Of a DNA stretch of 64,000 bases, positions 34,140 to 54,416 are shown piece after piece (positions within the stretch are counted from its first letter, which is position 1; every line of letters begins with the position of its first letter). Source of the DNA: Candidatus Gottesmanbacteria bacterium GW2011_GWC1_43_10. Its GTDB lineage: Bacteria; Patescibacteriota; Microgenomatia; UBA10105. Under the pieces are notes generated by a model. That model saw nothing but the letters and a program-made list of their open reading frames with translations, had not been told where the DNA came from and made no database searches. The position numbers and the translations under genes are program-made. The stretch is taken from NCBI GenBank assembly GCA_000995415.1, contig LCEX01000002.1, forward strand, positions 19,232-83,231, in the 5' to 3' direction.

Positions 34140-36869
34140 TTAATAATTTAAATGCTCGTCGGTTTGTAAAGTTGAGATGCGCTTAGATGCCAATTTGGAT
34201 AAAGGTAAAGAGATGAAACTAGATAAATTATGCGTTAGTTTTGGAAAAAGAATCAGCACAGAAATAACTACCAAAGACAGCAAATTTATATAAAACCAAA
34301 TCCAGTTCCCGAATCCTCCGGTAAATTCCAATTGCAAGTGTATCTGATTTGGAGTTTGGGGAATAGGGATATACATGAAATTTAAACCGGCCTCAAACAC
34401 TGGTGCTGCCGTATCATTTATTTTAGCTTGCCATCCTGGATGGAAATTTTCTTTAAAGTAAACTCCATTGAATTTTTTTCCTGTTATTTCGATCTTTTCA
34501 CTATTGTAGCGGATGACTTGGGCTTGAGGATACAAATTGGGAATGATCACGAGAGTTTCTAAAATGTTTGCAAACAGACTGGTTTCCTCTTGATTTAAAT
34601 ACTCTACAAGATGAAACGGTAAATTCAATCCACTCACAAATAGTCGACCCTTTTCAATTGGCGCATCCACCAAGACCGGTTCCTCATCCTGCCTAAGCAG
34701 TACTGTAGTGTTGGCATTCGACTTGCTTGGATCGAAAGTAGAATATTTCCAGGGCTGGTTTTGGTAAAGGAGCGGCGAAAATTGCTGGGGATCAATTTGC
34801 TTGACTAATTTGGAGTCAGGGTCAATTTGGAGATTCCAGGCAGAAGCACTTTTTTCTTTAACTCGAGCTAATGGCAAGTCGCTTGGGAACTTGTGTGATA
34901 AATTTGGGTTGGACCCGAGTTCAAGAAAAACCTTACCGCCACTTTTAAGATAAGGGACCAATAGTTTTAAATCGCCTTGAAAACGATATAAAAATAAAGA
35001 GGGGAATGTGGCAAGTATGGTTGGCGATAGTTTGCTAAGAGAAGTCGGGCCCTTTACAGGAATAAGTTTACTGGAATTCAGGTTTGTCAATGCCAGCGCC
35101 CGGATAAAAGTCGAGTAACCAGAATCATCACCAATAAACAAGATCGGCAAAGCTGTGGTCGGTTCGATGATAGGTGAAGTAAACTGCGGTTTTAGTTGAC
35201 TGATACGATTAGAATATTTTGCATAAAGCTCTTCCTTCTGCAAGTCAGTATGGTATTTATCGTTCACTACAAAACCTATGCCAAAAGCATCGAATAAAAA
35301 CCGGGCCCGGTTTTCGATGAGTTGGGGTGGGACATTTTGGTTGGCATCAACACTTAAGGCGGTTTGCAAATAATAAGTCCAGTCACTTGATTTGGCGTTG
35401 AAGCCACTGGTATATCCCCGTGTGACTGGGATATCACTTATCAGGTTCCACCAGTGGGTGAGAGTGGCGTCATTTGAGTCAAGTCGGTATTGCGGGTTTT
35501 CTGGTGTCAACCAGGCTGGTAATTGCTCGTTTTTATAACTTATATCCCGATATTCGGGCAAGATAATTTTATGGATATAATTAGGAGCAGCATTGGGTGG
35601 ATCTGTCAAAAATTTAGGTATCAGGCTGGCGCTGGTTAGGGAGTTGACTTGCCAGGGCAAAACAAACGGCAAGATAGAAATAAAAGCTGTAGACATCAGC
35701 CACCCGAAGTAGCGATTGGCCCGGGTAAGGAGTTTGAAATTCTGAGCTGCAAGTGTTAGTAGTAGCACCAAAACTGCCCAGAACATCCGGCGGGGAAACA
35801 AGGAATTTGCCAGCGAATTTAAAAGATGTAAATAAGCCCCAAACGGATAAAGTAAAAGCACAACGGATGCAAATAAAAGTGGCATGGTGGAACGAATGCT
35901 TAATGATCGTTTGAAGATACGATAAACTAATTTTGCTCCCAAAACAAAAAGCAAACTAAGTCCTGAGACAATAAACGGTAACCAACCTAGCCACCGCTCC
36001 AAATGGAAAGGATATATGCCCCAACACTGCGAATTATCACATGTTGTAGCAATTTCACTAAAGGACATCTGATTAAAAAATGGCCAGAGACCTAAAGTTC
36101 CGCTGGCGCTGGTAGTAAAAATGAAGATTAATATTTCGGATACCCGATGGGCGATTCGACTGGTAGAAACAATCAAACTTCTGGTAACTAAAACTACGCT
36201 TACCGGTAGTATCACAAATAATAAACTCATTGCCGGATGGTGAATCAGACTTAGACCGCAAATTACTGAGGAAATAAGTAAGTTACGGTATGATTTTGGC
36301 AGGTCAAAATGGCGATATAAAAATAAAAGTGACAGTGGTAAATAAAACTGCATGGATGAGCCGGTGATCATCCCGCCGGAAGTAAGTTGGTAATACACTG
36401 CTTGTGATGTCAAGCCAATGAGCGTCAGTCCGAGCGCAACAAAATAATTTTTACTGATTTGTAAGTAGAGTAAATATGAAAAAAGATGGAACAGTAAAAT
36501 AGCAATTACCGAATACCAATTCAGCGCTTGAAGTGGAGTCGCGAAAAAAAGCAATGGTGCCATGAGATAAAAAGTCAGCCACTGATAGCCCCCGATGAGG
36601 GGACCGCCCCCGTTCCAAAAAGCCAGCCAGCCTGAAGGAGGTAGTGGCAGGTGCTGGGCAAAATACTTAGCATAGGTAAGTCCGGTATAGTAATCACCCC
36701 CGATGGGTGAAGGTAAATGTAAGTACCAATTTGCCAAAATTTGCCACCACAAATAAGTAATCAAACCGAGTGAAATAAATAGTATAATTAGAGACAGAAA
36801 TGGCAACAGAATTTTTTTTAAGTTGAGATTTGACAGATCCATAACCTTGGCAGCCAAAGAACTAATCAC
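34140..36869 (-). CDS. Large polytopic membrane protein, paralog 3 of the ~950-aa family
   Basis: 909 aa with the same architecture. The conserved post-TM block YRLDSNDATLTHWWNLISDIPVTRGY matches the 17365 and 20278 paralogs, and there is a C-terminal TM. Confidence 0.55.
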   Translation of the reverse strand: MISSLAAKVMDLSNLNLKKILLPFLSLIILFISLGLITYLWWQILANWYLHLPSPIGGDYYTGLTYAKYFAQHLPLPPSGWLAFWNGGGPLIGGYQWLTFYLMAPLLFFATPLQALNWYSVIAILLFHLFSYLLYLQISKNYFVALGLTLIGLTSQAVYYQLTSGGMITGSSMQFYLPLSLLFLYRHFDLPKSYRNLLISSVICGLSLIHHPAMSLLFVILPVSVVLVTRSLIVSTSRIAHRVSEILIFIFTTSASGTLGLWPFFNQMSFSEIATTCDNSQCWGIYPFHLERWLGWLPFIVSGLSLLFVLGAKLVYRIFKRSLSIRSTMPLLFASVVLLLYPFGAYLHLLNSLANSLFPRRMFWAVLVLLLTLAAQNFKLLTRANRYFGWLMSTAFISILPFVLPWQVNSLTSASLIPKFLTDPPNAAPNYIHKIILPEYRDISYKNEQLPAWLTPENPQYRLDSNDATLTHWWNLISDIPVTRGYTSGFNAKSSDWTYYLQTALSVDANQNVPPQLIENRARFLFDAFGIGFVVNDKYHTDLQKEELYAKYSNRISQLKPQFTSPIIEPTTALPILFIGDDSGYSTFIRALALTNLNSSKLIPVKGPTSLSKLSPTILATFPSLFLYRFQGDLKLLVPYLKSGGKVFLELGSNPNLSHKFPSDLPLARVKEKSASAWNLQIDPDSKLVKQIDPQQFSPLLYQNQPWKYSTFDPSKSNANTTVLLRQDEEPVLVDAPIEKGRLFVSGLNLPFHLVEYLNQEETSLFANILETLVIIPNLYPQAQVIRYNSEKIEITGKKFNGVYFKENFHPGWQAKINDTAAPVFEAGLNFMYIPIPQTPNQIHLQLEFTGGFGNWIWFYINLLSLVVISVLILFPKLTHNLSSFISLPLSKLASKRISTLQTDEHLNY

Positions 36870-39003: not shown

Positions 39004-40096
39004 TTTTGTTTAGCAGCTGCTCCAGTTTTCGCGTTTGCGTAAGCCAGGAGGGAAATTTATTCACCATGATTTGAGCTCTGTTTCCCAATTTTAACCTGAG
39101 TCGGCGATGTTGCAACAGACTGGTTAACTCATGAGCCAAAGCGTTGGCAGTTTCCTCTGCCACAACAATTCCGGTAGTTTTATCTTTGACGAGTTCTTTA
39201 AGACCATTGACCCGAAAACATACGGTGGGAGTTTGTTGGCTGGCAGCTTCAAGCACGGTTAAGCCAAAACCTTCTTTGAGAGAGGGGTGAACCAAGATCC
39301 ACGCATATCTCAGTAATTTAAATTTTCCTTTCTCGGACACTTGATGGAGAAATCTGACTCTATTTATCAGACCAAGTTTTCTAGTTAATTGATTTAAGTG
39401 GTTGATATAGTGGGTTTTACCCCGGCCGACAATAATAACTTTGAGGCTACGAAACTGTGTTTTGAGTATTTGACATACCTCGAGCAATAATTCCAAGCGT
39501 TTTATCGGTGCCAATCGACCTACATATATAAGTGTTGGCTGTTGGGATTTGGGTAGGCGAACTAATGTCGGTGGGTTGATCGTCAAAGGTAAGATAGAAA
39601 TATTGATTTCCGGTATGCCTTTTTTGATAAGTTCTGAAGCGGTTGAATTGGCATCGGTCAAAAAATGGAGATGACGATAAAAATAAAAATAGATTTTTTC
39701 GCTCATGTATCCGATTGTAGCCAAAGGAAAAGAAAAATCAGCAAACCAGATTTCACCGGCAACTTCGTGGATAAAAGCCAGAATTGGTTTTTGGATATAA
39801 AGCGGAGTAAAAAAAGGCAGGCCGTGGATCTCATCAATCACAATATCAACTTGATCGCGTAAATGAGACAAGTAAAAAATACAGGCATGTAGTTGGATCG
39901 TATATAGATTTCCCAGGCGGATCACTTTTACGCCCGCGATGGTTTCGCGTTTAGCTAAACCGGGGGAGAGACTTGAAATTTGGAAAACCTGATGCCCCAG
40001 TTTGACTAAATGCTTGGCATATTCATGAGTAGCAATTTCCGCTCCACCTGCTAATGGATGTCGTAGGTCTTTCCAATTTAGGATAAGAATCCGCAT
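38996..40096 (-). CDS. GT4 (group 1) glycosyltransferase
   Basis: MRILILNWKDLRHPLAGGAE N-terminus and GFGLTVLEAASQQTPTVCF. Internal ATG at 40096 chosen because the track extension overlaps the upstream GT2. Confidence 0.8.
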   Translation of the reverse strand: MRILILNWKDLRHPLAGGAEIATHEYAKHLVKLGHQVFQISSLSPGLAKRETIAGVKVIRLGNLYTIQLHACIFYLSHLRDQVDIVIDEIHGLPFFTPLYIQKPILAFIHEVAGEIWFADFSFPLATIGYMSEKIYFYFYRHLHFLTDANSTASELIKKGIPEINISILPLTINPPTLVRLPKSQQPTLIYVGRLAPIKRLELLLEVCQILKTQFRSLKVIIVGRGKTHYINHLNQLTRKLGLINRVRFLHQVSEKGKFKLLRYAWILVHPSLKEGFGLTVLEAASQQTPTVCFRVNGLKELVKDKTTGIVVAEETANALAHELTSLLQHRRLRLKLGNRAQIMVNKFPSWLTQTRKLEQLLNKII

Positions 40097-40121
40097 GCCC
40101 AAGATTATAGCAGAAGATTTA

Positions 40122-40916
40122 TTAGAGAGATTGCAACAGCGGTTTAAATGCCAGCGCTTTGTCTGTGTTTTCGTGAGTATAAAACTTGAGGATATTTTTA
40201 CGGTAATAAATAGCCGCAACATCCTGTAGAAAATTTTTGACCGCCCGGATATCAATCGTACTTTGGTTAGCAGGAGAATGATGAATGACTACCGGAACTT
40301 CGGTGATATCACTAAATCCCATGATTTGGGCCACTACCAATAGTTCCAAATCAGTGGCGAAACGCTTGATCACCAGTCGTGGAAAAACCTGATTGAGGAC
40401 ATTGCGCCGAAATATCTTTAAACCCACCTGGGTATCTGAAACATTTAGATGGAATAAAACTCGGATGACTACTTTTAGAATCAAGCTGTAGAAAACCCTA
40501 TTCCAGGGATAATAAATGCGCGAAGCGGGATGGTACTTGGAGGCAATCAGCATATCAGACGAATTATGCAAAAATTGCCGAAGCTTGTTGACAACTTGCC
40601 GCGGTCGGATATCCAAATCCCCGTCCAAAAAAACTACCGGGTCACCAATCGACCGGGTAAAGCCAGTCTGCAAGGCAAATCCTTTGCCGAAATTTTGCGA
40701 GTAATGCAAGATTTGTATCTTCTTTCGAACAGGGTAAGCGTTTCTGAAATTTAACGCCGATTTTAGGGAGGTGTCAGTAGAACCATCGTCGACTAAAATG
40801 ATTTCGTAATCCCGTAAACCCTGTCGAGAAAGTTCCTGTGTCAATAAAAATAGAGCCTTAGCGAGAATTTTACCTTTATTATAAACGGGAATGATAAAAG
40901 AAATCATTAATTTCAC
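40122..40916 (-). CDS. GT2, dolichyl/polyprenyl-phosphate sugar synthase-like
   Basis: MISFIIPVYNKG...IILVDDGSTDTS...LDGDLD. GTG at 40916 or ATG at 40907, possibly leaderless (see the repeat/promoter feature at 40878-40947). Confidence 0.85.
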   Translation of the reverse strand: MKLMISFIIPVYNKGKILAKALFLLTQELSRQGLRDYEIILVDDGSTDTSLKSALNFRNAYPVRKKIQILHYSQNFGKGFALQTGFTRSIGDPVVFLDGDLDIRPRQVVNKLRQFLHNSSDMLIASKYHPASRIYYPWNRVFYSLILKVVIRVLFHLNVSDTQVGLKIFRRNVLNQVFPRLVIKRFATDLELLVVAQIMGFSDITEVPVVIHHSPANQSTIDIRAVKNFLQDVAAIYYRKNILKFYTHENTDKALAFKPLLQSL

Positions 40917-40947
40917 TATGCCATTTGTGTCCCTTGGCTGTCAAGAG
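40878..40947 (-). promoter_or_regulatory. About 70-bp repeat copy 1: promoter (perfect TTGACA -35) plus the first codons of the GT2 gene
   Basis: Minus strand TTGACA, a 17-18-nt spacer, CATAGT, then an ATG about 7 nt later, which would make the mRNA leaderless. It is 65/70 identical to 42606-42675. Confidence 0.45.
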
Positions 40948-41047
40948 TAAAATGTAATTGTGCCACCGAATTTGTGCAATATTGAGTCGGTCAAATGTTG
41001 CGGATCTGAGATAGTTGGGTATAAATCTTCTTATTAACACTATCTGT

Positions 41048-42592
41048 TTATTGGCTTTGACTATCAGGAGACCTGAATGTCTGTTGGGAATTATCAAGAA
41101 CTAAAGCTTCTAGATCCAAATAAGTGCTCTTTGAAAGCTCGATGTTTACTCCCGGCCAATTGTCGGATCTATTTTTGATAACGACTACTCGTTTTGGGTC
41201 GGTGTCCTCTATAGGAGTTGGAAAAAGACTGTATGCCCGATATATCCAGTCCCAATTCCGGTAATGGTAGCTTTTGACCGCCGGACGGAAATACAATGTA
41301 TATAGCTCGGTCCAACCTCCTCCATGGATATAAGGGTCGTTTGAGGCGTACAGAGAAAATTTCTCATTACCGATAGCATCAGTAGTGTTTTTGATGAGGT
41401 TTATCTTTTGATAAAGCGGATATTTCACTTGAGAGTTAACTAGGGTATAAAGATTCACGCTAAAATAAAAAATTAACCATGCCGCCATTAACCACTTAGC
41501 TCGTTGTTCAATCCAAACTAATACCTGAGCTACCAAAACGATGAAAATCGGGTAAAATACCATAAAATAATGTTGGAAGAAGTTGCCCCTGAAGACGATA
41601 TTGTAAAAATAAAGACTGATAACAAAGGCAAACACCATGATCCACAACAATCGCATTTTCCAGACTGGGGGTTTTTTGGAAAAAAGCCAGTATAAACTTA
41701 TGCCAAGCATGATCACAACCATCAGTTGTGTTACCGGTGTAAACAGTGCAAGTGGAACATCGCAGTAACAAAAATTTTGCTCAATAAATTTGCTGGGAGC
41801 TGTAAAAAGGACCCGGGTTAACACTCCGATCACTTCTGCCGGTGGATAAAGCTTGCCGTCGGTGGGTAACATATCAGGCCTTATGGGGCGAGCCAAAGAT
41901 CGCACAATCGCTTTCGAAACTACTCCGTGATAACGCACTTCGGCCATTAAAAAAGGCATTATAAATATTCCCAGTATCACCAAACCTGCTGCTGTGTATT
42001 TATTTTTGAGTGAGACTTTAAAAAATGCTAAAGTGATCAAGATCGCTACTACCAACGCTATGAGTGATGCGTCTTCGTGAAAGGCAAAGCCAATTGGGAA
42101 AGCCAAAAGCGGAAGAAATCGATAGTCCTTTTTGATCACTTTCATCAAACTCCACAATGTCAACGCCGACAAAACCGGATTTAAGGTCAGATGCACCAAG
42201 CGGCGGTCGAATAATGAAATAAAGAATGAAGTTGCATACAAAAAACTTGCCACCAAACCAAGTTTTTTGTCTCCGATCTCGGATCCGGCTTTATAAACCA
42301 AAAAAGTGGTGATCACTCCTAAGACTGAAGCAATTGTTTGAAGATTTACCAAGTCAAACTTGGTCAAGTAATAGAAAGGGGTCAAAAAATAGTGATAAAA
42401 AGGTCCTAGCCCAAACCCCAAACTGGCATTTTGTACTAAAAGTGTGGGTGAACGATCCCAAATGATATGTCGAATGGTAGCAGTGAGCACTTCTTCATCC
42501 CCACTCCAATACTGAAAATCGTAAAAGTTATAAAAACGGAAAAATATTGCCAGTGCAATAATAAAAACTAGAAGTCGATGCTTAATGGCCAA
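41048..42592 (-). CDS. GT-C glycosyltransferase-like polytopic membrane protein
   Basis: 514 aa and hydrophobic, with first-loop YWSGDEEVLTATIRH (DE motif). TTG start, with GGGAGGA immediately upstream. Confidence 0.6.
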   Translation of the reverse strand: MAIKHRLLVFIIALAIFFRFYNFYDFQYWSGDEEVLTATIRHIIWDRSPTLLVQNASLGFGLGPFYHYFLTPFYYLTKFDLVNLQTIASVLGVITTFLVYKAGSEIGDKKLGLVASFLYATSFFISLFDRRLVHLTLNPVLSALTLWSLMKVIKKDYRFLPLLAFPIGFAFHEDASLIALVVAILITLAFFKVSLKNKYTAAGLVILGIFIMPFLMAEVRYHGVVSKAIVRSLARPIRPDMLPTDGKLYPPAEVIGVLTRVLFTAPSKFIEQNFCYCDVPLALFTPVTQLMVVIMLGISLYWLFSKKPPVWKMRLLWIMVFAFVISLYFYNIVFRGNFFQHYFMVFYPIFIVLVAQVLVWIEQRAKWLMAAWLIFYFSVNLYTLVNSQVKYPLYQKINLIKNTTDAIGNEKFSLYASNDPYIHGGGWTELYTLYFRPAVKSYHYRNWDWIYRAYSLFPTPIEDTDPKRVVVIKNRSDNWPGVNIELSKSTYLDLEALVLDNSQQTFRSPDSQSQ

Positions 42593-42605
42593 TCCTCCCT
42601 ACCAT

Positions 42606-42675
42606 ATTATAAACAAGAATGATAAAGGAAATCATTAATCTCACTATGCCATTTGTGTCCCTGGGCTGTCAAGAA
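42606..42675 (-). repeat. About 70-bp repeat copy 2 upstream of the GT-C gene, carrying the same TTGACA promoter and a pseudo-N-terminus (MISFIILVYNMVGRIGH) as a 17-codon uORF
   Basis: Direct repeat of 40878-40947. The uORF ATG is at 42635 and its stop (42584-42582) lies 6 nt inside the GT-C TTG start region. Confidence 0.45.
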
Positions 42676-42824
42676 AAAAAAGCTGATTGAGGTACTAGAT
42701 TTGAGCTGAAATTGGTGAAAAATCTAACTGCTAGGTTTTATTACAATTGAGTTTTCCAGAATTGCAAGGCAGGAACAGATATTATATGATCGGGAGATCA
42801 AAATTTGACCGAGAGAATAATTTT

Positions 42825-43052
42825 ATGAAACTCGTCCAAAAAGCTTGGGTGAATTGGAAAAGACTGACGACCAAAATTGCAGTTTGGCAAGCGCGTACTT
42901 TATTGACTGTATTTTATTTCTCCATTTTACTTCCTGTTGGATTAATAGCGCGTTCATTTGATCTACTCCAAAATAAGTCAAAGGTAAAGAACACTTGGCA
43001 AATGAGAACGAAGATGCAAGATACACTAGTGACACTTCAAGACCAAGCTTAA
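42825..43052 (+). CDS. Small single-TM protein immediately upstream of carbamoyltransferase
   Basis: MKLVQKAWVNWKRLTTKIAVWQARTLLTVFYFSILLPVGLIARSF; its stop lies 1 nt before the carbamoyltransferase ATG. Start uncertain (track 42747). Confidence 0.4.
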   Translation: MKLVQKAWVNWKRLTTKIAVWQARTLLTVFYFSILLPVGLIARSFDLLQNKSKVKNTWQMRTKMQDTLVTLQDQA

Positions 43053-43053
43053 T

Positions 43054-44775
43054 ATGTATATCTTAGGAATTTCCTGTTATTTCCATGATGCTGCGGCGGT
43101 TCTACTCAAAGACGGCAAAATCATCGCCGCCATTGAAGAAGAGCGGCTAAGCCGTCACAAGCACGATGCCGGATTTCCAAGTCGTGCTATTGACTTCGTT
43201 TTAGAACAAACAGGGATTAAGCCGCAAAACCTGGATTATGTCGTGTTCTATGAAAAACCGTTTCGCAAGTTGCAGCGAATTTTTTATTCGACTATTGTTA
43301 ATTATCCTAAATCCGCCGCTGCCTTTGCCGAAGCAATGCGCGTTTGGTTGACCCAAAAACTTTGGATCAAACAGGAAATTGCCACTCATTTGGGGATCGC
43401 TACCCAAAAAATTCTTTTCACCCAACACCATTTAGCTCATGCAGCGAGTTGTTTTTACCCGTCGCCGTTTGTTGAGGCGGCCATTTTGACTGTAGATGGC
43501 GTTGGTGAATGGACAACTACATCAACTGGAATTGGTATCGGTAATCATATTGAATTAACCAAAGAAATCAGATTTCCCCAATCTCTGGGACTTTTATATT
43601 CAGCATTTACTGCCTGGTTGGGTTTTGAAGTCAACGAAGGTGAGTGGAAGGTGATGGGGCTGGCTCCATACGGACGACCCCGTTATGTGAATAAAATTTG
43701 GAAAATGGTGAAACTAAATCCGGATGGCAGTTTCTTTCTTGATTTAGACTATTTTGCGTTTCAGTATTCGGATACCCAATCATTCTCAGACAAGTTTGTG
43801 AGTTTGTTTGGTAAACCCATTGAAAGGAATCAGGCGCATTTGATTTCCGAAAAAGGGGCGGATGTGGCTGCCAGTATTCAGGTGGTGACTGAAGAGATTT
43901 TATTGAATATGGCAAAAAAATTACAGCAGGAAACGCAGTCAAAAAATTTATGCCTGGCCGGTGGAGTGGCTTTAAATTCAGTTGCTAACTACAGACTGCT
44001 AAAAGAGAGTGGATTTAGTCATATTTTCGTACAGCCGGCAGCAGGTGATTCAGGCGCAGCTTTGGGAGCAGCCCTTTATGTGTATCATCAAGTCACTCGC
44101 GATAAAAGCCGTTTTTTACAAAGTCATAGTTATCTGGGAATTGAATTTGCAAATCCGGAGATTAAACGGTTTTTGAGAACTCAAGCCATTGATTATCACT
44201 TTTTTCCGACACCAAAATTGCTGGATTATATCGCAGGGCAAATCGCCCGGGGCCGCGTCGTGGGTTGGATGCAAGGAAAATGCGAATGGGGACCGCGGGC
44301 TTTGGGGGCAAGGAGTATTTTAGCTGATGCCCGAAATCCCAAAATGAAAGATATTATAAATAGCAAGGTCAAGTTTCGTGAAGCTTTTCGTCCGTTTGCT
44401 CCATCAGTGCTGGCTGAAAAGGCGCATTTGGTTTTTGATCTACCCCAAAACACCAGAGACTGGTGGCCACTTAGATACATGCTGTATGTAGTACCGGTAA
44501 GGACAACTTGGCGGAAAAAAGTTCCGGCGATCACCCATATTGATCACACGGCCAGACCACAGCTGGTTGACCGCAAAATAAATCCCCTATATCACAAGCT
44601 GATCCGCAAGTTTTATCAAAAAACCGGGGTACCTCTGGTTTTAAATACTTCATTTAACCTCAAAGGCGAACCCATCGTAGCGACTCCGACGGACGCCTAT
44701 TCCACATTTTTACGTTCCGGGATTGATATTTTGGTGATGGGAAATTACGTCTGCGAAAAAGAAAGAAATAAATAA
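43054..44775 (+). CDS. Carbamoyltransferase (NodU/CmcH/NovN family), full length
   Basis: MYILGISCYFHDAAAVLLKDGKIIAAIEEERLSRHKHDAGFP family N-terminus; HHLAHAASCFY; C-terminal domain present (573 aa). Confidence 0.9.
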   Translation: MYILGISCYFHDAAAVLLKDGKIIAAIEEERLSRHKHDAGFPSRAIDFVLEQTGIKPQNLDYVVFYEKPFRKLQRIFYSTIVNYPKSAAAFAEAMRVWLTQKLWIKQEIATHLGIATQKILFTQHHLAHAASCFYPSPFVEAAILTVDGVGEWTTTSTGIGIGNHIELTKEIRFPQSLGLLYSAFTAWLGFEVNEGEWKVMGLAPYGRPRYVNKIWKMVKLNPDGSFFLDLDYFAFQYSDTQSFSDKFVSLFGKPIERNQAHLISEKGADVAASIQVVTEEILLNMAKKLQQETQSKNLCLAGGVALNSVANYRLLKESGFSHIFVQPAAGDSGAALGAALYVYHQVTRDKSRFLQSHSYLGIEFANPEIKRFLRTQAIDYHFFPTPKLLDYIAGQIARGRVVGWMQGKCEWGPRALGARSILADARNPKMKDIINSKVKFREAFRPFAPSVLAEKAHLVFDLPQNTRDWWPLRYMLYVVPVRTTWRKKVPAITHIDHTARPQLVDRKINPLYHKLIRKFYQKTGVPLVLNTSFNLKGEPIVATPTDAYSTFLRSGIDILVMGNYVCEKERNK

Positions 44776-44987
44776 TCTTCAAATTTTCTAAAAGCCTGTT
44801 TAGAAACCCGCAAAATTAGTCTAATTTTATACTTGCGTTTAAAGCAAAAAATCCCGATGTGTCAAGCCAGTACACTTTCGATGTGTTCGCCTATGCAATT
44901 TATCCTCATCTATCACTTGGTAACTGGATAAAAACTCCGGATTTGATATACACTAATGTTATACCCATGTCAAAAGGGGATTTTCGT

Positions 44988-47900
44988 ATGGTTAGAAACT
45001 TATTTATAAAACATATTTCCCCTCATACAGAAAAACTGACTGTATTGTTTCTTTTTATGTGTAGTATTCTTCTGGGAAGCTTTTTAACCAGGTCGTGGCC
45101 ATTTCGAAATGATGTCAAAATAGTTATAGGTTCTGGTTCAGGTACCGATGCTCCTACACAACTAGCGCAGTATAAGTCTGACGGATCAACTAATATCAGT
45201 ACCGGTGGAACCACTGATGAAACAACTGTTGTTCTATCTATGAGTATGACTGATCCCGATAATCCAGCCAGTGTCCGTCCGCAGATTGAGATACGAGCGA
45301 TCGGCACTGATTTTACGGGATCACCCACCGATCAAGGCGGTGTCGTTTCGTATACGGGTACACCTCTCACAGGCTCTGTGACTGTATCAAGTTTATCAAG
45401 CGGAACAAGTTATCACTGGCAAGCACGCGTTTGCGATAGTGCAAGTACTTGTTCTTCATGGGTTACCTTCGGCGGTAATTCTGAATCCGAGTCTGATTTC
45501 CAAGTTGTAGGGGGAAACTCTATACCGAACACTCCCTCAAGTCTGGGGCCAGCAGACAAAGTCTCCGGTCAAACTACTACCAATACTACACCTACACTAG
45601 AATTTTCCCTCTCTGATCCAGATACTGCCGATCAGCTTCGTTACTGGATCCAGATTGATGATTCAAGTGATTTTAGCTCATTACTCGTTAGTTATAGATC
45701 TGCGACGCAAGCACAAGGCTCACGCAATTTTATTGTCGGTCAAAGTGTGAGCGGAGGAACATATGTGGTTGGTAGTCAAGGACAAACACTTGTCAACGGA
45801 TCATATTATTGGCGAGTAAAAGCTGTCGATGCCAGTGGAGCTGAAAGCGGGTTTGTTACTGCCAATAGTGGTGCGGTGGCCTTTATCGTTGATACAAGTG
45901 GTGGTAGTGGTACTTTGGCGTTTAGTCTGACGTCTCCGGTTGATAACAGTTATGTTAACGATGAACGACCTGATTTTGCTTGGAGTCCCACGAGTGATGA
46001 CGGTTCGGGAACTTCGCAATATAAAATGTCTGTCGCAAATACGTCAGCTCAAGACGATTTTTCTATCGATAGCATTGCTCCTGCTGGATCGAGTAGCGTC
46101 GTCACCGGGAGATACACTGTCAGCTATCAGGGGTTTTATGACGGAAGTACCGGCAATAATAATATTTCAGTAGTCACTTCTTCAAGTTCGGAGTGGCCAA
46201 CTACGCAAAATGACGGCAAGATAAAAGAAGGCAAACGCACTTGGACTATTAATGGCAAAAAAAGCGATGGGACATCCTTGTCTCATTCAAGCACTGTAAA
46301 CGTTGACTTGACCAAGCCTACCGTCACGGTCTCAAAACTGACATATTCGACTAGTTCAGTCACGGTGGAAGGAAATGTTACTGATACCAAAAATGGCAGT
46401 CTAGCAGATCAATCTGACTATATCCGGAGCGACCCAAAACAAGCAGTCATTTCTATAACCCAAGGAACAAGTATAATTTCCCAATCCACAATTGATTTAC
46501 AACAGACATGTAATTATTCAGATACGACCAGTACCAGTCTCATCTGCTCATTTTCGCAGACCTTTAACCAGACCTTTGATCCAAGCACGTATACATTTTC
46601 GGTTACAGGCACTGACAAGGCAGGAAATCAGTCAACATACCAACAGACGCTCGCGATAATAAATGCTTCACCCACGACACAAACGCAGGCAAGTCCTGCA
46701 ACCGGAACACCGTCTCCAAGTCCTATTTTGGAACCGACCCTGATTACAAATATCAAAATCAGCAGTATTGGACTCACTACGGCGCAAATCACCTGGAACA
46801 CCAATCATCCCGCCACCAGTAAAGTCAATTATGGTCTTTCTCCAGAATTTGAACACAGTGTCTATGACGGAACACTTGTCATTGAACACAAGATGCAACT
46901 AAAAGATCTTTTGCCTGATACTAATATTTATTTTGAAGTCATCTCTCAAGGCAACACGACTGTTTATGATGCCTTCCGTATATTTCGCACGAAAAAGGAA
47001 TTATCAGAGCTTACTCCCATACAAGCGGTCAGTGAAGTTCAGACTCAACTCCAATCCAATCCCACGATCAAACAAGCAGCTGAAACGACTTCTACAGTTG
47101 TGGGTGTTGGAGCAGGTACTGCAGCTCTCGGTAGTTTCATCCAGCTGATTTTTGGAACAGGTGGGCTCACAAGTGTTGGGTTGAGTCAGGGAATTGCGAA
47201 CTTGGTCAGCTCTCTGCTTCTGTCTTTGGGAATTATCAAAAGACAGCGAAAAAAGACGCATGGAGTAGTCTTTAATGCTTTAACCGGAGATGGAATCCCT
47301 GGGGCTTATCTTATCTTTCACTCAAAATCTGGTAATTTACGCTCTACGATCACCAACCGGGATGGCCGGTATACGGTCACACTGGTTCCTGACCTTTATA
47401 CTGTAAAAATTATCAAAGAAGGTTTTCGTATCGCACCTGAACCTAATAAAAGTGCTTATGCCTATGGATATGCAAATTTGTTTAATCCGACACAAGGTAT
47501 TACAGTAGCGAATGAGCCATTTACTAATATGGCGATTGCTGTTGAACCAACGGTTATTGCCAATACATTGAGGCGTTATTGGCGAACTATTCAAACAAAT
47601 ATAACTGGTCTGGTCTATAAAAACTTTTATGTATTTATTTTTATAGGACTTCTTCTATCAGGATTTGCCACGTTTATTAAACCGTCAATTATTAACGGCA
47701 TTTCGTTTTCGCTTCTCTTTATGGGATTGTTTATTCAAGTTCTTGCGTCATTTAATAAAACCAGAAATTATGGTGTTGTCGTCAACGCACGAGGAAAACC
47801 GAGCCCATATCTTTCTCTAGACCTCTACCGTTGGAATGGGCGGGCCTGGGATATTTATACTCATCAGACAACTGATGCCCAAGGAAGATATATCCTAACG

Positions 47901-48023
47901 CCGGAAGATGGGTATTATTTTATGAGGTTACTTTCGTCTGCCAAACAAATTCTCGCGCAAAAACAATTTATGGTTAACAATGTTTTTCCAGCGATCAGGG
48001 AAAAATTTGTTATTCCACTTTAG
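44988..48023 (+). CDS. Large S/T-rich cell-surface protein with FN3-like repeats and a C-terminal membrane/CarboxypepD_reg-like region
   Basis: Signal/anchor LTVLFLFMCSILLGSFL. Repeats carry YHWQARVCDSASTC, YYWRVKAVDASGAESGF and TAQITWNTNHPATSKVNYG (FN3/PAP-N-like). Long Ser/Thr tracts. C-terminal TM helices and a DGRYTV beta-sandwich motif. ATG at 44988 has a GGGGA SD; the track ORF begins at 44859. Confidence 0.6.
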   Translation: MVRNLFIKHISPHTEKLTVLFLFMCSILLGSFLTRSWPFRNDVKIVIGSGSGTDAPTQLAQYKSDGSTNISTGGTTDETTVVLSMSMTDPDNPASVRPQIEIRAIGTDFTGSPTDQGGVVSYTGTPLTGSVTVSSLSSGTSYHWQARVCDSASTCSSWVTFGGNSESESDFQVVGGNSIPNTPSSLGPADKVSGQTTTNTTPTLEFSLSDPDTADQLRYWIQIDDSSDFSSLLVSYRSATQAQGSRNFIVGQSVSGGTYVVGSQGQTLVNGSYYWRVKAVDASGAESGFVTANSGAVAFIVDTSGGSGTLAFSLTSPVDNSYVNDERPDFAWSPTSDDGSGTSQYKMSVANTSAQDDFSIDSIAPAGSSSVVTGRYTVSYQGFYDGSTGNNNISVVTSSSSEWPTTQNDGKIKEGKRTWTINGKKSDGTSLSHSSTVNVDLTKPTVTVSKLTYSTSSVTVEGNVTDTKNGSLADQSDYIRSDPKQAVISITQGTSIISQSTIDLQQTCNYSDTTSTSLICSFSQTFNQTFDPSTYTFSVTGTDKAGNQSTYQQTLAIINASPTTQTQASPATGTPSPSPILEPTLITNIKISSIGLTTAQITWNTNHPATSKVNYGLSPEFEHSVYDGTLVIEHKMQLKDLLPDTNIYFEVISQGNTTVYDAFRIFRTKKELSELTPIQAVSEVQTQLQSNPTIKQAAETTSTVVGVGAGTAALGSFIQLIFGTGGLTSVGLSQGIANLVSSLLLSLGIIKRQRKKTHGVVFNALTGDGIPGAYLIFHSKSGNLRSTITNRDGRYTVTLVPDLYTVKIIKEGFRIAPEPNKSAYAYGYANLFNPTQGITVANEPFTNMAIAVEPTVIANTLRRYWRTIQTNITGLVYKNFYVFIFIGLLLSGFATFIKPSIINGISFSLLFMGLFIQVLASFNKTRNYGVVVNARGKPSPYLSLDLYRWNGRAWDIYTHQTTDAQGRYILTPEDGYYFMRLLSSAKQILAQKQFMVNNVFPAIREKFVIPL

Positions 48024-48090
48024 AGCCAGTCGAAGTGCAGGGCCGTGTCTGATGTTCGCACCTTTTACGCACAAAATCAACAAAATTTGT

Positions 48091-49386
48091 TTATTTTTCA
48101 GGCTTAAAAAGCAACCACTCATAAAGAGGAATTACTTGAATTTTAAAGCCCTCAGATTCTATTAACTCCTTATCACTTTCGGTAATGATTAGCAGTTGAC
48201 TCGGATTTTTTTGTTCTTGCGCCGCTGTCACTAAAGCATTCACTTCTCTATTTTTCGTCTCATCCGTCAACTGTTTTGTTACTTGAATAAACAGTTGGTC
48301 TTTGGGAATAAAAAAATCAACTTCTTGTTCTTGACCGGTTTTGTAATAATATACGTTCTTTTGTCTTCTTAGCAGTTCCAAATATACCACGTTTTCCATA
48401 AACTTACCCGAGTTTGGCGAAAAACTAAAACCCACTGATTTGGTCAGTCCAGTATCAATACTGTAAATTTTTTTAGCAGCTATCTGCTGTTCTTTAACTG
48501 AGTATGCATATTTGTTAACTACAAAAAACAACCAACTGCTTTCTAAATAATTTATATAATTTTTGACCGTGTTGACACTCCCTAATCGTAACAAGTCTTT
48601 AATTTTGTTAAAGGAAATCAAGGCCGAGGTATTGCTGATCAGATATAGGGATAATTCCTGTAGACTTTTAACGTTGTCCAACTTGTACCTTGTGGCAATA
48701 TCACGATACAAAACGTCGTCGTACAAAGTCTTATGAACTTCCAATTCCGGATATTTAAGTGCATCTGGGATACCACCTAGGGCAATATAGTCATTAACCA
48801 ATTTGAGTAATTTGCCTTTTTGAGCGGTCGTAAATATACTCGAGTTGTCCAATGTAACTTCTTTAAAGCGCAAATATTCACGAAAAGAAAACGGAAAGAC
48901 TTCCATACGAAATGATCGGCCGGTTAAGCGAGTACCTAATTCCTGGGACAATAAAGAAGCATTAGAACCGGTTATTATAAACTTATACCCTTGGTCATAC
49001 AGCCTTCTGATAAACCGTTCCCATTGAGGTACATTTTGGATTTCGTCAAAGATAAATATTTTTTTTTCACCATACAGGCTGATTAAACCTTCATAAAGAA
49101 GATCAAAATCTTTGACACTAAAATTTAGTAGTCGCTCATCCTCAAAATTGACAAAATAATAGTCCTTTTTGAAGTAAGTATCAGCTATTTGTGATAGAAG
49201 CGTTGATTTTCCCACTCGCCGCAGTCCAGTAATCACGGTAATTTGAGGTGAGTCCATAACTGGTTTTAAACTACCTAATATCTCTCTTGGGACTCCCCGG
49301 TCCTTGACCAAAAAGGCCTCATATTGTTCTTTCAGAACTGAGGCTAATAATTCCTTGGTAAGAGTGGTCGGTTGTCCAATTGGCAT
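48091..49386 (-). CDS. AAA+ ATPase, AAA_14 plus DUF4143 family
   Basis: Walker A ITGLRRVGKST and Walker B IFIFDEIQ; the C-terminal region is typical of DUF4143. Internal ATG at 49386 (MPIGQP). Confidence 0.8.
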   Translation of the reverse strand: MPIGQPTTLTKELLASVLKEQYEAFLVKDRGVPREILGSLKPVMDSPQITVITGLRRVGKSTLLSQIADTYFKKDYYFVNFEDERLLNFSVKDFDLLYEGLISLYGEKKIFIFDEIQNVPQWERFIRRLYDQGYKFIITGSNASLLSQELGTRLTGRSFRMEVFPFSFREYLRFKEVTLDNSSIFTTAQKGKLLKLVNDYIALGGIPDALKYPELEVHKTLYDDVLYRDIATRYKLDNVKSLQELSLYLISNTSALISFNKIKDLLRLGSVNTVKNYINYLESSWLFFVVNKYAYSVKEQQIAAKKIYSIDTGLTKSVGFSFSPNSGKFMENVVYLELLRRQKNVYYYKTGQEQEVDFFIPKDQLFIQVTKQLTDETKNREVNALVTAAQEQKNPSQLLIITESDKELIESEGFKIQVIPLYEWLLFKPEK

Positions 49387-49488
49387 GCATGTACTATAAT
49401 ACCATTTGTTTTCATTGTCAATGAAAACTTTAGGTAGGTAGTTTTCAGTATCGTTGAAAGCTTTTAAAGCAATAAAAATACTGTAATT

Positions 49489-51705
49489 ATGATTACAATC
49501 ATTCCTGAACAAATAGCTTTGTATCGCTCCTTTTTTAATACCCGCACAGATGTATTTGCTAAATATTGGGTAGATTTGTCAGGTAAAAAGTCCGGGTATT
49601 CACCAGTTTACCGTTTGAACCAGTCACCACAAGCATTAACTGATATGGTTATTATCTCCCATTTGCAAGGTAACCAAACCATCGGTGTATACCCTCTGTT
49701 TCCAGATAATACAACAGCCTTTTTGGCAATTGATTTTGATGGCAGTGAGTGGTTAAAAACAATCCAACATGTAGTAACTGTTACCCAAGATGACAAAATA
49801 CCCATAGCAATTGAACGCTCCAGGTCAGGCAATGGAGCTCATATCTGGTTTTTCTTTACTAATCCGATTCCAGCCTATCTTGCCCGGCAGTTTGGTAGAT
49901 TTATTCTTAACCAATCAGGCATCACCACTCGCAAAACCTTTGACCGGCTGTTTCCCAGCCAAGACGAACATACCGGAAAAGGTTATGGAAACCTTATCTG
50001 TTTACCGCTCCAGGGAAAACTAGCCAGCGAAGATAAAACTGTATTTATCACTCCTAACGGTAACACTATTCCTGACCAGTGGCACTATTTAGCCCAAATC
50101 AGGAAAATATCGGTAACTGAGATCCAACAATACATCAGTAATTCCAATAAGCCGGTTATCTTTAACAAAGAGCAAATATCTGCACCGCAATCAAATCAAG
50201 CTACTCATCAAACCATCGAAGAGTCTAACGAAACTCAAGTAGTTACTACCCAAGGCCAACAAACCAAGTTGATACTTGGTTCGCAGATATTTATCCCAAA
50301 TATTTACTTACCCGATAAACTACATCGCTTCCTCAAAAGCGAACTCAATTTCCCCAACCCTGAATACTTTACCAAAGAACGGTTTGGTTATTCTACCTGG
50401 CAAACACCACGGTTTATCAAAACTATTGAAGTGCATCCCGATGGCATAACTATTCCGTTGGGATTATTGGATCAAGTGATGAAATTTATTAACCAAGAAC
50501 AATTGCAGGTGGAAATTACCGATAAACGAATTACTACAAAACCAGTGAGTTTCCCCTCAACTATCAAATTACGAAAAGACCAACAACAGATTTTACATGA
50601 ATTGCTCACCTTTGACCGTTCAATTCTTCAAGCTCATCCAGGATTTGGAAAAACTATGGTGGCTTTGTATCTGATGAAGAAACGCCGGCAAAAAACCCTG
50701 ATTATTGTCCATACAAATACTCTCCTTTATCAATGGCACAAGCGCATTACTGAATATTTTTCGCTTAAGAAAGATGAAGTCGGAATAATTGGTGATAACA
50801 AATGGAATATTGGTAAAAAGGTAACCATTGCTTCCTATATGACTTTGAGCCGGCGCGGAGTGAAAGAGATTAAGGATAATTTCGGATTCGTAATTGTTGA
50901 TGAGTGCCACCATGTGCCGGCTAACACGTTTAGTACTGTAGTCAAACAATTTCCGGCTAATTATATGCTTGGATTGACAGCTACCACCTATCGTAAAGAC
51001 AAGCTGGAAAAATTGATGTTTTTGTATATTAGCAACCATACAGTACCAGCTAAAGAGCAAACCCCATCAAAACAACCGGAATTATCCTCAACAGTCGAAA
51101 CACAACTACTTACCCGCAAAACTGAGTTTGAGATACATAGTAAAGTGGATGATTTTCAGGAAATCAGCCGCTTTACTATTGTTGATGATAAGCGGAACAA
51201 CCAAATCACGAGAGATATTGCTGAGGTTTTGGCAACCGGTGCTAAATGTCTCGTCCTGACCGAAAGGCTTGAACATTCGGAAAAACTATTGGAATTGGTT
51301 CGTACTAAAACAAAAGGCATTCATGCTGCAGTAGCCACCGGTGTCATGACTAAAAAACAGCGCGAACGGATCACGAAGCGGATGAGCCAGGAACGGTTCC
51401 AACTCCTCATTGCTACCGGAAAGCTCATCGGAGAAGGCTTTGACTGGCCGGCTGTTTCCCACCTGTTCCTGGCTTTTCCGTTTTCCTGGAAAGGTAGATT
51501 GATACAATATGTGGGTAGAGTGCAGCGAAATTCTGAGGGGAAAATTCTAGCCGTAGTTCATGATTATTTTGATGACAAAGTCCCTATGCTCAAACTAATG
51601 TATTTCAAACGTCTACGTACCTACCGTAGTTTAGGACTAACCAAAATCGGCAATCCTCAAAAACATACCAGCCTACCCGAAAACCAGCTGAGTCTGTTCG
51701 GATGA
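49489..51705 (+). CDS. Fusion of AEP-type primase-polymerase-like N-terminal domain with SF2 (DExH/ResIII-like) helicase
   Basis: N-terminal motifs LAIDFDG (hhhDhD), RSRSGNGAHIWFFF (sGxGxHxW) and LICLPLQG. C-terminal Walker A GFGKTMVAL, VIVDECHHV, LGLTATTYRKD and motif V/VI ATGKLIGEGFDWP...YVGRVQR. Confidence 0.6.
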   Translation: MITIIPEQIALYRSFFNTRTDVFAKYWVDLSGKKSGYSPVYRLNQSPQALTDMVIISHLQGNQTIGVYPLFPDNTTAFLAIDFDGSEWLKTIQHVVTVTQDDKIPIAIERSRSGNGAHIWFFFTNPIPAYLARQFGRFILNQSGITTRKTFDRLFPSQDEHTGKGYGNLICLPLQGKLASEDKTVFITPNGNTIPDQWHYLAQIRKISVTEIQQYISNSNKPVIFNKEQISAPQSNQATHQTIEESNETQVVTTQGQQTKLILGSQIFIPNIYLPDKLHRFLKSELNFPNPEYFTKERFGYSTWQTPRFIKTIEVHPDGITIPLGLLDQVMKFINQEQLQVEITDKRITTKPVSFPSTIKLRKDQQQILHELLTFDRSILQAHPGFGKTMVALYLMKKRRQKTLIIVHTNTLLYQWHKRITEYFSLKKDEVGIIGDNKWNIGKKVTIASYMTLSRRGVKEIKDNFGFVIVDECHHVPANTFSTVVKQFPANYMLGLTATTYRKDKLEKLMFLYISNHTVPAKEQTPSKQPELSSTVETQLLTRKTEFEIHSKVDDFQEISRFTIVDDKRNNQITRDIAEVLATGAKCLVLTERLEHSEKLLELVRTKTKGIHAAVATGVMTKKQRERITKRMSQERFQLLIATGKLIGEGFDWPAVSHLFLAFPFSWKGRLIQYVGRVQRNSEGKILAVVHDYFDDKVPMLKLMYFKRLRTYRSLGLTKIGNPQKHTSLPENQLSLFG

Positions 51706-51749
51706 TACTTTTTTACTAAAAATGTCTGTGCATAGGTTAAAATACCAGT

Positions 51750-54280: not shown

Positions 54281-54368
54281 TGAATTGGATGGTCAAAAAT
54301 CAGAGAAAAATTCGAATCTCAGCCTGAGAGATTATTTTTAGATTGTTATGACAAGCCAAATTTGATGT

Positions 54369-54416
54369 GCTGAGGCTAGGATTCGCACCTAGGTAGCCCG
54401 TTAGGGCGATCCCGCC
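54369..54416 (-). other. tRNA-like 3' half (variable arm, T arm and acceptor 3' strand) of a split tRNA-like gene
   Basis: Minus-strand sequence GGCGGGAT-CGCCCTAACGGGC-TACCTAGGTGCGAATCCTAG-CCTCAGC. A 35-nt block (54374-54408) is identical to tRNA-Tyr 54435-54469. Confidence 0.5.

Follow-up and report, generated by a model that had tools for sequence, protein, structure and literature searches.

Probable promoter capture by a GT-C gene through duplication of the promoter and start of a glycosyltransferase gene in a groundwater Gottesmanbacteria lineage

Comparison of neighbouring genes in a Gottesmanbacteria genome revealed that a short piece of DNA carrying the promoter and the first codons of a glycosyltransferase (GT2) gene occurs a second time, directly in front of a GT-C gene. 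The duplicate most likely supplies the GT-C gene with a promoter. Such promoter capture appears well supported, since the promoter of the original copy is conserved, GT2 stands first in its cluster without GT-C in relatives, and the promoter determinants of the second copy are intact. A fuller explanation, in which the promoter was duplicated before GT-C, a short open reading frame (ORF) arose as a by-product and GT-C is translated via reinitiation, is in our judgment fairly probable as a whole. The DNA analysed, here called the window, is a stretch of 64,000 nt; the features compared are the following.

40122-40907, minus strand: GT2 gene, 261 aa, polyprenyl-phosphate sugar synthase-like (Pfam PF00535, 1.3e-20), with a predicted leaderless ATG start
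40877-40952, minus strand: repeat copy A (the reference), native promoter plus the first 10 codons of the GT2 gene
40915-40944, minus strand: promoter PA, -35 TTGACA at 40944-40939, 18-nt spacer, TG-n-CATAGT with the -10 box at 40920-40915 (10/12 plus TG)
40953-41047, minus strand: spacer of 95 nt from the GT-C stop to copy A, lacking any terminator-like site on this strand
41048-42592, minus strand: GT-C gene, 514 aa, PMT_2 family, TTG start (Pfam PF13231, 1.8e-10)
42605-42680, minus strand: repeat copy B, duplicate of the promoter and GT2 5' fragment before GT-C, 69/76 identical to copy A
42643-42672, minus strand: promoter PB, -35 TTGACA at 42672-42667, 18-nt spacer, TG-n-CATAGT with the -10 box at 42648-42643 (10/12 plus TG)

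The two copies form an ungapped direct repeat of 76 nt (40877-40952 and 42605-42680, identity 69/76, offset 1728 nt), which is the longest and best repeat within the 64-kb window. A preliminary description of this DNA had given it as 70 bp with 65/70 matches; the repeat was borne out and is slightly longer. A 32-nt core, allowing up to three mismatches, occurred exactly twice in the window and in none of 100 shuffles. Copy B is placed 43 nt before the GT-C TTG, and its end lies 12 nt before that start. The longest exact run between the copies is 22 nt and their divergence is 9%, with seven differences (42676, 42675, 42663, 42640, 42627, 42616, and 42615), none of them inside the -35 box, the TG, the -10 box or the ATG. 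The sparing of these 17 critical promoter and start positions was not significant (P = 0.16) and gives no signal of selection. Within the 30-nt coding part, the two changes private to copy A are synonymous; that of copy B replaces the family-invariant Pro7. Local alignment of the upstream flanks (25-100 nt) was no better than with shuffled sequences (P 0.05-0.44), which sets the repeat boundary some 8 nt ahead of the -35 box. An extended upstream homology, which would have shown differential constraint on the promoter core, was rejected accordingly, and similarity between 40953-41047 and the region upstream of copy B was not significant.

The copied coding stretch comprises 10 codons and one base of GT2. 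The preliminary description had counted 13 codons from a start at 40916, where the GTG codon overlaps the -10 box and was rejected as a start; with the start at ATG 40907, position 1 of the PF00535 profile aligns at residue 3, and orthologues begin at the equivalent codon.

An assembly artefact was excluded, since many independent assemblies show the identical arrangement. The 2.7-kb region was 100% identical in L001, L002, L004, and L005 and 99.93% identical in L003, and each of the 24 contigs read with this GT2 had the same arrangement; no empty-site variant, with GT2 but without GT-C upstream, was found among them. L003 differs by three SNPs over 6.5 kb, two of which fall inside the 54-nt short ORF described below. 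The protein database contained no intermediate relatives, either between 61 and 100% identity for GT2 or between 56 and 100% for GT-C.

Read along the minus strand, each copy gives TTGACA, an 18-nt spacer and TG-n-CATAGT with g as the n, followed after 7 nt by the ATG. PA and PB were the two best promoter-like sites in a promoter scan of 39900-43200, and both have the spacing (16-18 nt) and the TG of sigma-70-type promoters with an extended -10 box; the TTGACA and CATAGT boxes of the preliminary description were thus found in both copies, at 10/12 and with the TG extension. Conservation of copy A was followed through eight orthologous loci (L013-L020, 53-61% protein identity). cTTGACA was kept upstream of GT2 in all eight, and a box of the type TGn-(C/A)A(T/A)AGT followed at N17-18 in six, while the spacer sequences were unrelated. 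As the promoter elements are conserved and the spacer varies, the pattern is a phylogenetic footprint, that of a promoter predicted to be leaderless. The distance from the end of the -10 box to the ATG or GTG is 6-9 nt in 9/9 loci (window and orthologues), so that transcription is predicted to start at or next to the GT2 start codon. No Shine-Dalgarno (SD)-like motif was found upstream of GT2 in the window or in the orthologues, whose starts are ATG or GTG. Copy A therefore appears to be the native, phylogenetically conserved sigma-70-type promoter of GT2, well supported by these comparisons, and the GT2 mRNA is predicted to be leaderless, with its 5' end at or within 1-2 bases of the ATG.

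More generally, the genome seems hardly to use SD sites. GGAGG or AGGAG was present within 20 nt of the start in only 4 of the 47 genes in the window, and in 5 of the 47 a strong -10 box stops 6-8 nt ahead of the start codon, against 1.1 expected. The leaderless reading proposed in the preliminary description thus agrees at the sequence level with the -10 spacing, the lack of an SD motif, the SD-poor window and the enrichment of -10 boxes.

GT2 opens a conserved envelope-glycan cluster, in the order GT2, GT4, GT4 on the opposite strand, RmlD-like, methyltransferase and GT2, which is found in Gottesmanbacteria and related Microgenomates. The best solved relatives of GT2 are the polyprenyl-phosphate glycosyltransferases DPM synthase (5mlz), GtrB (5ekp) and ArnC; GT2 is without the membrane segment that GtrB and DPMS have at the C-terminus, and that it acts as a polyprenyl-phosphate donor synthase is something we only infer. 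It is the first cluster gene in L013-L016, L018, and L021-L023, its upstream neighbours are unrelated in L013-L016, and what lies between GT2 and the cyclophilin gene differs from relative to relative. None of 84 loci with GT2 homologues had a GT-C gene upstream (up to 5 kb), which makes this position of GT-C lineage-specific and derived. A second, truncated GT2 copy was likewise absent from the relatives and present in the window alone. At that place the relatives thus carry neither the duplicate nor GT-C, as would be the case before a duplication. A relic of an ancestral operon leading from GT2 to GT-C was considered and rejected: in L006 a GT2 gene is followed after 5 nt by a GT-C orthologue, but this GT2 is only 27% identical to that of the window, and true GT2 orthologues are always followed by GT4 and in no case accompanied by GT-C.

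Copy B retains every promoter determinant, and it is a second promoter-bearing segment directly upstream of a different gene. The spacer between its promoter boxes is identical to that of copy A at 17 of 18 positions though it is unconserved among orthologues, which indicates a recent copy made within the lineage. Promoter capture, as proposed in the preliminary description, therefore stood, with the orthologue footprint and the synteny in its favour; the coupling or attenuation through the short ORF that it had named as possible found no positive support, as this ORF has no conserved counterpart, two alleles alter its peptide and its fold is unremarkable. Of the repeat for which conservation in relatives had been at issue, the copy A promoter was recovered at eight loci and copy B at none, the nearest GT2 being 61% and the nearest GT-C 56% identical.

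The copied piece might instead be an inert rearrangement scar, a 76-nt junction with GT-C transcribed from elsewhere and the short ORF untranslated. The non-significant sparing of promoter positions would fit such a scar, as would the two of three L003 SNPs inside the ORF, which suggest relaxed constraint, and the failure to find a conserved counterpart among relatives. Against this, the scan showed no promoter-like site other than PB on the minus strand from GT-C to the divergent gene. GT-C is moreover complete, retaining every residue that is invariant in its family, and therefore needs a promoter, and the copied piece corresponds almost exactly to a minimal promoter plus start, as selection for expression would keep. 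We consider the scar unlikely.

GT-C begins at the TTG 42592-42590. From there its N-terminus aligns with 18 homologues, the closest at 56% identity, and its frame is closed upstream by a TAG at 42601-42599. An alignment scan of genome contigs with GT-C returned three loci only (45-46% identity), and its composition gave no foreign signal (GC 0.403 vs. 0.39-0.44 in the neighbours). The start is overlapped by the frame continuing from copy B.

42582-42635, minus strand: 17-codon ORF MISFIILVYNMVGRIGH plus TAA, beginning 7 nt after the PB -10 box and one base out of the GT-C frame
42593-42599, minus strand: SD-like GGGAGGA, 1 nt before the GT-C TTG, outside the repeat and inside the short ORF

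The 17-codon ORF spanning GGGAGGA had been noticed in the preliminary description and was found from 42635 to 42582; its overlap with GT-C, given there as 6 nt, is 11 nt including the stop, with 8 nt of sense codons. Two alleles exist in the population, as the L003 version, MISFIIPVYNMLGRIGH, differs at 2 of 17 residues, and the allelic positions are 42616 and 42602. No counterpart was found among relatives, the nearest of which are again the GT2 at 61% and the GT-C at 56% identity, and MISFIILVYNMVGRIGH contains no amino-acid run that would mark sensor codons. The leader matched no Rfam family, and its fold (-13.7 kcal/mol, z 0.48 against shuffles) was no more stable than chance; a structured leader or riboswitch was rejected on these grounds. 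A programmed +1 frameshift from the short ORF into GT-C was also rejected, given the TAG at 42601-42599, the lack of a slippery site at CAU-UAA and the fit of homologue N-termini to the TTG. The short ORF is most plausibly a by-product that could not be avoided once the 5' end of a gene predicted to be leaderless was copied, since the promoter of such a gene carries a start codon along with it.

UUG is a weak start codon and poor as a leaderless start, and an SD motif 1 nt from a start is too close under the established E. coli spacing rules. As a ribosome-binding site for GT-C, the GGGAGGA pointed out in the preliminary description is therefore mis-spaced, and it is atypical for this genome. 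The GT-C orthologues are without SD motifs and abut an upstream ORF, with a gap of 5 nt in L006 and 2 nt in L008. Termination-reinitiation is thus the favoured, if unproven, path to GT-C translation, given the near absence of SD sites and these orthologues abutting their upstream ORFs at 2-5 nt. The TAA of the short ORF (42584-42582) lies close behind the TTG, a geometry suited to coupling, and we regard coupling mediated by the short ORF as a reasonable hypothesis from the sequence. GGGAGGA may instead support independent initiation if the 16S rRNA keeps its anti-SD; no 16S gene lies within the 64-kb window.

Ribosomes translating the short ORF could just as well block the GT-C start and reduce its expression. 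GT-C would then initiate internally at the UUG via GGGAGGA, and ribosomes on the leaderless ORF would cover the site, holding the membrane protein below the level of GT2 from the same promoter. Besides the one in GGGAGGA, the window has a single GGAGG motif within 20 nt of a start, the short ORF covers both GGGAGGA and the UUG, and in the minimum-energy fold leader nt 3-17 pair with nt 31-45, including GGGAGGAUU. The GGAGG is nevertheless only 1 nt from the UUG, too near for canonical SD placement, the genome is otherwise without SD use, and the fold is no more stable than its shuffles. A braking role of this kind seems rather improbable.

A dispersed repeat or mobile promoter was rejected, as only two copies were present in the window and an exact 24-nt core gave no further copy (0 matches) in JGI metagenome contigs, a collection evidently without this population. 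GT-C is the only gene between the repeats; no transposase or integrase lies there or alongside, and extra copies were not found. It is very unlikely that the repeats serve RecA-mediated pop-out and re-insertion of a 1.7-kb GT-C unit, by which a surface-glycan modification would be gained and lost in the population: direct repeats do flank exactly one gene with its spacer, and the region from the cyclophilin gene to GT2 does vary in relatives, but GT-C stands upstream in 24/24 contigs with no empty site, the repeats are short and diverged with only the 22-nt exact run, and no recombinase was found nearby. The last candidate is a second -10-like hexamer.

42606-42611, minus strand: perfect TATAAT, made by the copied Tyr-Asn codons of GT2, 13 nt before the GT-C TTG, without a -35 box or TG

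That this hexamer is the real element, with a start near 42599, a 6-8-nt leader and TTGACA/CATAGT irrelevant, is highly improbable: it is perfect and near the UUG, and strong -10 boxes near starts are common in this genome, but it has no -35 match and no TG, was not reported by the promoter scan, recurs within all the orthologous GT2 genes as a side effect of their coding sequence, and lies 13 nt from the start, outside the 6-8 nt of other genes and before a UUG, a poor leaderless start.

The PMT_2-type GT-C, then, adjoins the cluster upstream in this groundwater lineage only, and under promoter capture a 76-nt piece, which begins 8 nt ahead of the -35 box and reaches GT2 codon 10-11, would have been duplicated before it. 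One possible origin is a tandem duplication of the segment from GT-C to the GT2 5' end, after which one GT-C was lost; another is that the 76 nt were copied directly. GGTA is a possible microhomology at the downstream junction. GT-C would thereby gain a promoter matching that of the GT2 operon at every functional position, and a GT2 that likely makes a donor and a GT-C that likely uses it would be transcribed under shared control. The truncated GT2 frame enters GT-C out of frame and stops 8 nt past the TTG, giving the 17-codon ORF. Ribosomes would enter at the 5'-terminal AUG, pass along the short ORF and terminate at the UAA (42584-42582), and reinitiation at the UUG 8-10 nt upstream of the UAA would most likely yield GT-C. 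As no terminator follows GT-C, PB transcripts probably extend into the genes of the GT2 cluster; a leaderless GT2 mRNA would nonetheless require PA.

Promoter capture by segmental or tandem duplication reportedly also produced the Cit+ rnk-citT fusion of E. coli in the long-term evolution experiment. Precedent for capture by duplication and microhomology exists (PMC6614815, Nucleic Acids Res 2019, on the activation of transferred genes; also PMC11111574). As in laboratory captures, a short promoter piece with a coding start stands before a previously unlinked gene and a hybrid 5' fragment is left, there often with microhomology at the junctions (PMC6614815). In the laboratory cases the duplication is still tandem and the gain in expression was measured, whereas here the state is natural and fixed in an uncultured CPR bacterium, consists of the 76-nt copy only, is 9% diverged and is known from sequence.

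In mycobacteria, polycistronic mRNAs can have a leaderless short ORF as their first cistron (Shell et al., 2015, PMC4633059; Canestrari et al., 2020, bioRxiv 10.1101/834739). There too a 5'-terminal AUG opens a short unannotated ORF, which lies just ahead of the next gene and can influence it. The mycobacterial attenuators are, however, conserved, with diagnostic codon runs (polycysteine) and a defined RNA duplex, whereas the Gottesmanbacteria ORF has no sensor codons, significant structure or conservation and is visibly a truncated GT2 N-terminus. In the literature searched, nothing relevant was found on leaderless initiation in CPR/Patescibacteria. Classic operon examples of coupling by termination-reinitiation exist. 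Such coupling at overlapping stops and starts, and 70S scanning, have been reviewed (PMC9031893). The likeness lies in an upstream stop within about 10 nt of a weak downstream start (UUG); the difference is that in the window the upstream ORF is no real gene but a relic of 17 codons, and the coupling is putative.

GT2 and GT-C together also resemble the known pairs of a polyprenyl-phosphate sugar synthase with a GT-C enzyme. Examples are the GtrB/GtrC-type, ArnC/ArnT and Ppm1/Pmt. In the window a GT2 with DPMS, GtrB and ArnC as relatives adjoins a PMT_2-family GT-C, which we infer may pair with it functionally. The GT2 of 261 aa is, however, shorter than the solved membrane-anchored synthases, and in relatives it accompanies GT4 genes, not GT-C.

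The finding is most probably a natural promoter capture and not a new kind of system, and no long-standing question depends on it. It is a clean case, with the state before seen at the orthologous loci and the state after in this lineage. It also carries a warning for annotation, as a short ORF that resembles an N-terminus and lies upstream of a gene can be a relic of duplication. The mode of translation start seems to be exposed as well, by a conserved leaderless promoter, few SD sites and -10 boxes 6-8 nt before starts. If the relic ORF feeds ribosomes to GT-C, it would show how leaderless-dependent bacteria wire in genes. A bolder and doubtful extension is that in SD-poor, leaderless-dependent CPR bacteria a relocated gene could be expressed only by means of a copied promoter-plus-start unit, the relic ORF being an obligatory loading ramp for ribosomes. 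If that were true, it would be a general route to domesticate newly placed genes, and many similar N-terminal-relic upstream ORFs would be predicted in CPR genomes.

The genes concerned are all encoded on the minus strand of this contig, whose source is the Rifle aquifer organism Candidatus Gottesmanbacteria (CPR, Microgenomates group). Read 5' to 3', copy B of a direct repeat precedes the GT-C gene, and copy A, after a spacer, opens the GT2 gene, which is followed by GT4 and more glycan genes:

42680-42605, minus strand: repeat copy B
42592-41048, minus strand: GT-C glycosyltransferase gene (PMT_2 family, 514 aa, TTG start)
between GT-C and copy A, minus strand: spacer, 95 nt
40952-40877, minus strand: repeat copy A
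40907-40122, minus strand: GT2 glycosyltransferase gene (261 aa)
40096-38996, minus strand: GT4 gene, then further glycan genes

The duplicated promoter and N-terminal fragment reported in the preliminary description was confirmed, and extends over 76 nt per copy with 69/76 identical positions and no gap. It is the longest and best repeat of the 64-kb window; its 32-nt core occurs at two sites only (up to three mismatches, whole window) and in none of 100 shuffles. The region was 100% identical across four independent assemblies and 99.93% in a fifth, and the layout was the same in all 24 examined contigs bearing GT2, which rules out an assembly artefact.

Both copies read TTGACA, 18 nt, TG-n-CATAGT, 7 nt, ATG ATT TC(T/C) TTT ATC ATT C(CC/TT) GTT TAT AAT A. 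In a promoter scan, the predicted promoters of copies A and B (PA and PB) were the top two promoter-like sites of 39900-43200, scoring 10/12 plus a TG extension. The true start of GT2 is the copy A ATG (40907), since the Pfam GT2 profile opens at residue 3 and the orthologues start at the same codon; a mechanical ORF list had placed the start at GTG 40916, a codon that overlaps the -10 box. The copy B frame runs on through ATG GTA GGG AGG ATT GGC CAT TAA, giving the 17-codon short ORF MISFIILVYNMVGRIGH (42635-42582) across the GT-C start as claimed. The GT-C TTG (42592-42590) sits inside it, one base out of frame, and the overlap measures 11 nt including the stop rather than 6 nt. As the GT-C frame is shut just upstream by TAG 42601-42599 and the N-termini of 18 homologues fall within a few residues of the TTG, this start call is sound; a +1 frameshift fusion of the short ORF with GT-C was excluded on the same grounds.

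Upstream DNA was available for GT2 orthologues at eight loci (L013-L020, 53-61% identity). All eight retained cTTGACA, followed after 17-18 unrelated spacer bases by a TGn-(C/A)A(T/A)AGT-type box (6/8) or a TATAAT-like box (2/8), with 6-9 bases from there to the ATG/GTG of MISFIIPVYNK; none had a Shine-Dalgarno (SD) motif at the GT2 start. Such conservation is the phylogenetic footprint of a promoter at which transcription is expected to begin at the start codon itself. Among the 47 window genes (ORFs of at least 120 aa), four carried GGAGG or AGGAG at most 20 nt from the start codon, while a strong TATAAT-like box ended 6-8 nt before the start in five, against 1.1 expected. SD motifs were also absent from the GT-C orthologues in other loci. 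Together, the scarce SD motifs, the -10 boxes near starts and the SD-less GT-C orthologues make leaderless or SD-independent initiation look like the norm for this organism; a search of the literature available to the analysis found no paper on this. One of the five genes with a strong -10 box is the GT4 gene next to GT2: a perfect TATAAT stands 7 nt ahead of its ATG 40096, inside the short gap (40097-40121) behind the GT2 stop, and the cluster genes may each have their own leaderless promoter instead of forming a single operon. Elsewhere, the divergent genes 13831-14370 (minus, hexapeptide-repeat transferase) and 14393-15763 (plus) are 22 nt apart. Between them the palindrome GTATTATAATAC (14376-14387) offers a perfect TATAAT on either strand, 7 nt ahead of each gene's ATG, so that 14368-14395 looks like back-to-back leaderless promoters with one common -10 box.

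The gene order GT2, GT4, GT4 (reverse), RmlD-like, methyltransferase, GT2 is conserved in the homologous loci L013-L016 and partly in L018 and L021-L023, always with GT2 first and unrelated genes upstream. No GT-C match was found upstream of GT2 homologues in any of 84 loci (up to 3-5 kb upstream covered), and GT-C orthologues (at most 56% identical) occupy varied genomic contexts. The distance from GT2 to an upstream cyclophilin gene is 4.4-4.9 kb in L014 and L016 but 13.7 kb in the window, and GT-C is therefore part of a variable interval beside the conserved cluster. The GT-C position upstream of the cluster is the derived state. Checking conservation in related genomes, we found no second, truncated GT2 5' end at any GT2-homologue locus. 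Although orthologues do not conserve the promoter spacer, the two copies agree there at 17/18 positions, which points to a recent within-lineage duplication and not to import from a distant relative.

From the conserved cyclophilin gene (54653-55315) to the GT2 cluster, the interval 42681-54650 contains genes particular to this lineage (carbamoyltransferase, a 1054-aa surface-type protein, AAA_14/DUF4143 ATPase, SNF2 helicase with AEP-TOTE domain, DUF6155), with GC down to 0.36-0.37 at 48-54 kb. A 93% identical copy (54366-54409) of the 3' 44 nt of a tRNA-Tyr (54429-54514, minus) follows 62 nt downstream, 18 nt from the tRNA end, and forms an att-like scar of integration or excision; beside it lies a 308-aa ORF (53354-54280) with no Pfam match. 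Within the glycan cluster, a 909-aa ORF without Pfam match (34140-36869) separates the RmlD-like and methyltransferase genes, which are adjacent in L014 and L016, making it another lineage-specific insertion.

The copies differ at seven positions: two immediately ahead of the -35 box, one each in the spacer and in the stretch from -10 to ATG, and three within coding sequence. The -35 box, TG, -10 box and ATG are untouched, which is not significant with seven changes (P = 0.16). Compared with the orthologue consensus ATGATTTCCTTTATCATTCCTGTCTATAAT, GTC>GTT is common to both copies. The two changes private to copy A are synonymous (TCC>TCT, CCT>CCC), while the one private change of copy B (CCT>CTT) replaces the family-invariant Pro7; copy A thus evolves as coding sequence and copy B not as a GT2 N-terminus. 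The same-population genome L003 (GCA_001780975.1) differs from the window at three positions in 6.5 kb (6468 nt), two of them within the 54-nt short ORF: 42616 T>C, returning Leu7 to Pro, and 42602 G>T (Val12Leu). Such an excess (at least 2 of 3 SNPs in 54 of 6468 nt) has P roughly 2e-4. Frame and length are thus kept, but the sequence of the peptide is not.

PB is the only promoter-like site for GT-C on its strand and GT-C is intact, and PB is therefore taken to be the GT-C promoter. This fits promoter capture by duplication, a well-documented process whose junctions often lie in the donor's 5' coding region and involve microhomology (PMC6614815); here, the downstream junction shows a possible GGTA microhomology. 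A captured unit from a leaderless donor would bring a start codon at the transcript's 5' end, so the short ORF would be an automatic by-product. Ribosomes loaded on the 5' AUG would terminate at UAA 42584-42582, step back 8-10 nt and reinitiate at the UUG. Given the SD-poor genome, the weak UUG start and GT-C orthologues that abut an upstream ORF at 2-5 nt (L006, L008), we infer that termination-reinitiation is the most economical route to GT-C translation. The GGGAGGA described before the TTG is present, but ends 1 nt before it, too close for a canonical SD and atypical in this genome; it may tether terminating ribosomes or be there by chance. Since a scan found no terminator-like site behind GT-C on its strand, PB transcripts probably run on into the GT2 cluster, and PA would still be needed for a leaderless GT2 mRNA.

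The short ORF could possibly act as a brake: its translation would occlude the UUG, where GGGAGGA would promote initiation independently. It is also possible that copy B is an inert scar and GT-C is transcribed from elsewhere, but GT-C would then have no visible promoter. An internal TATAAT (42611-42606) could be taken for the real promoter; however, it lacks a -35 box and TG, and arises from Tyr-Asn codons that produce it as a coding by-product in every GT2 orthologue. Repeats serving as a pop-out cassette find no empty site in 24 contigs, and a structured attenuator was rejected, with a leader fold no better than shuffles (z 0.48) and no Rfam match. As a regulatory leader peptide, the short ORF failed on conservation, sensor codons and sequestering structure; coupling or attenuation through it is hypothetical.

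Promoter capture is well supported by the orthologue-conserved promoter, the derived GT-C position and PB as sole promoter-like site. Among solved structures, GT2 is closest to dolichol-phosphate mannose synthase, GtrB and ArnC, which make the lipid-linked sugars used by GT-C enzymes. Identical promoters for GT2 and GT-C would thus make functional sense, although we can only infer such a pairing because in relatives GT2 travels with GT4 genes. The feature would work like the promoter capture observed in the laboratory (in Cit+ E. coli and where transferred genes were activated), and its short ORF resembles the leaderless short ORFs opening many mycobacterial operons. It is a known kind of event, in a natural instance and an unusual organism; the wider point to follow is that gene starts in this CPR genome seem to be built without leaders or SD sites.
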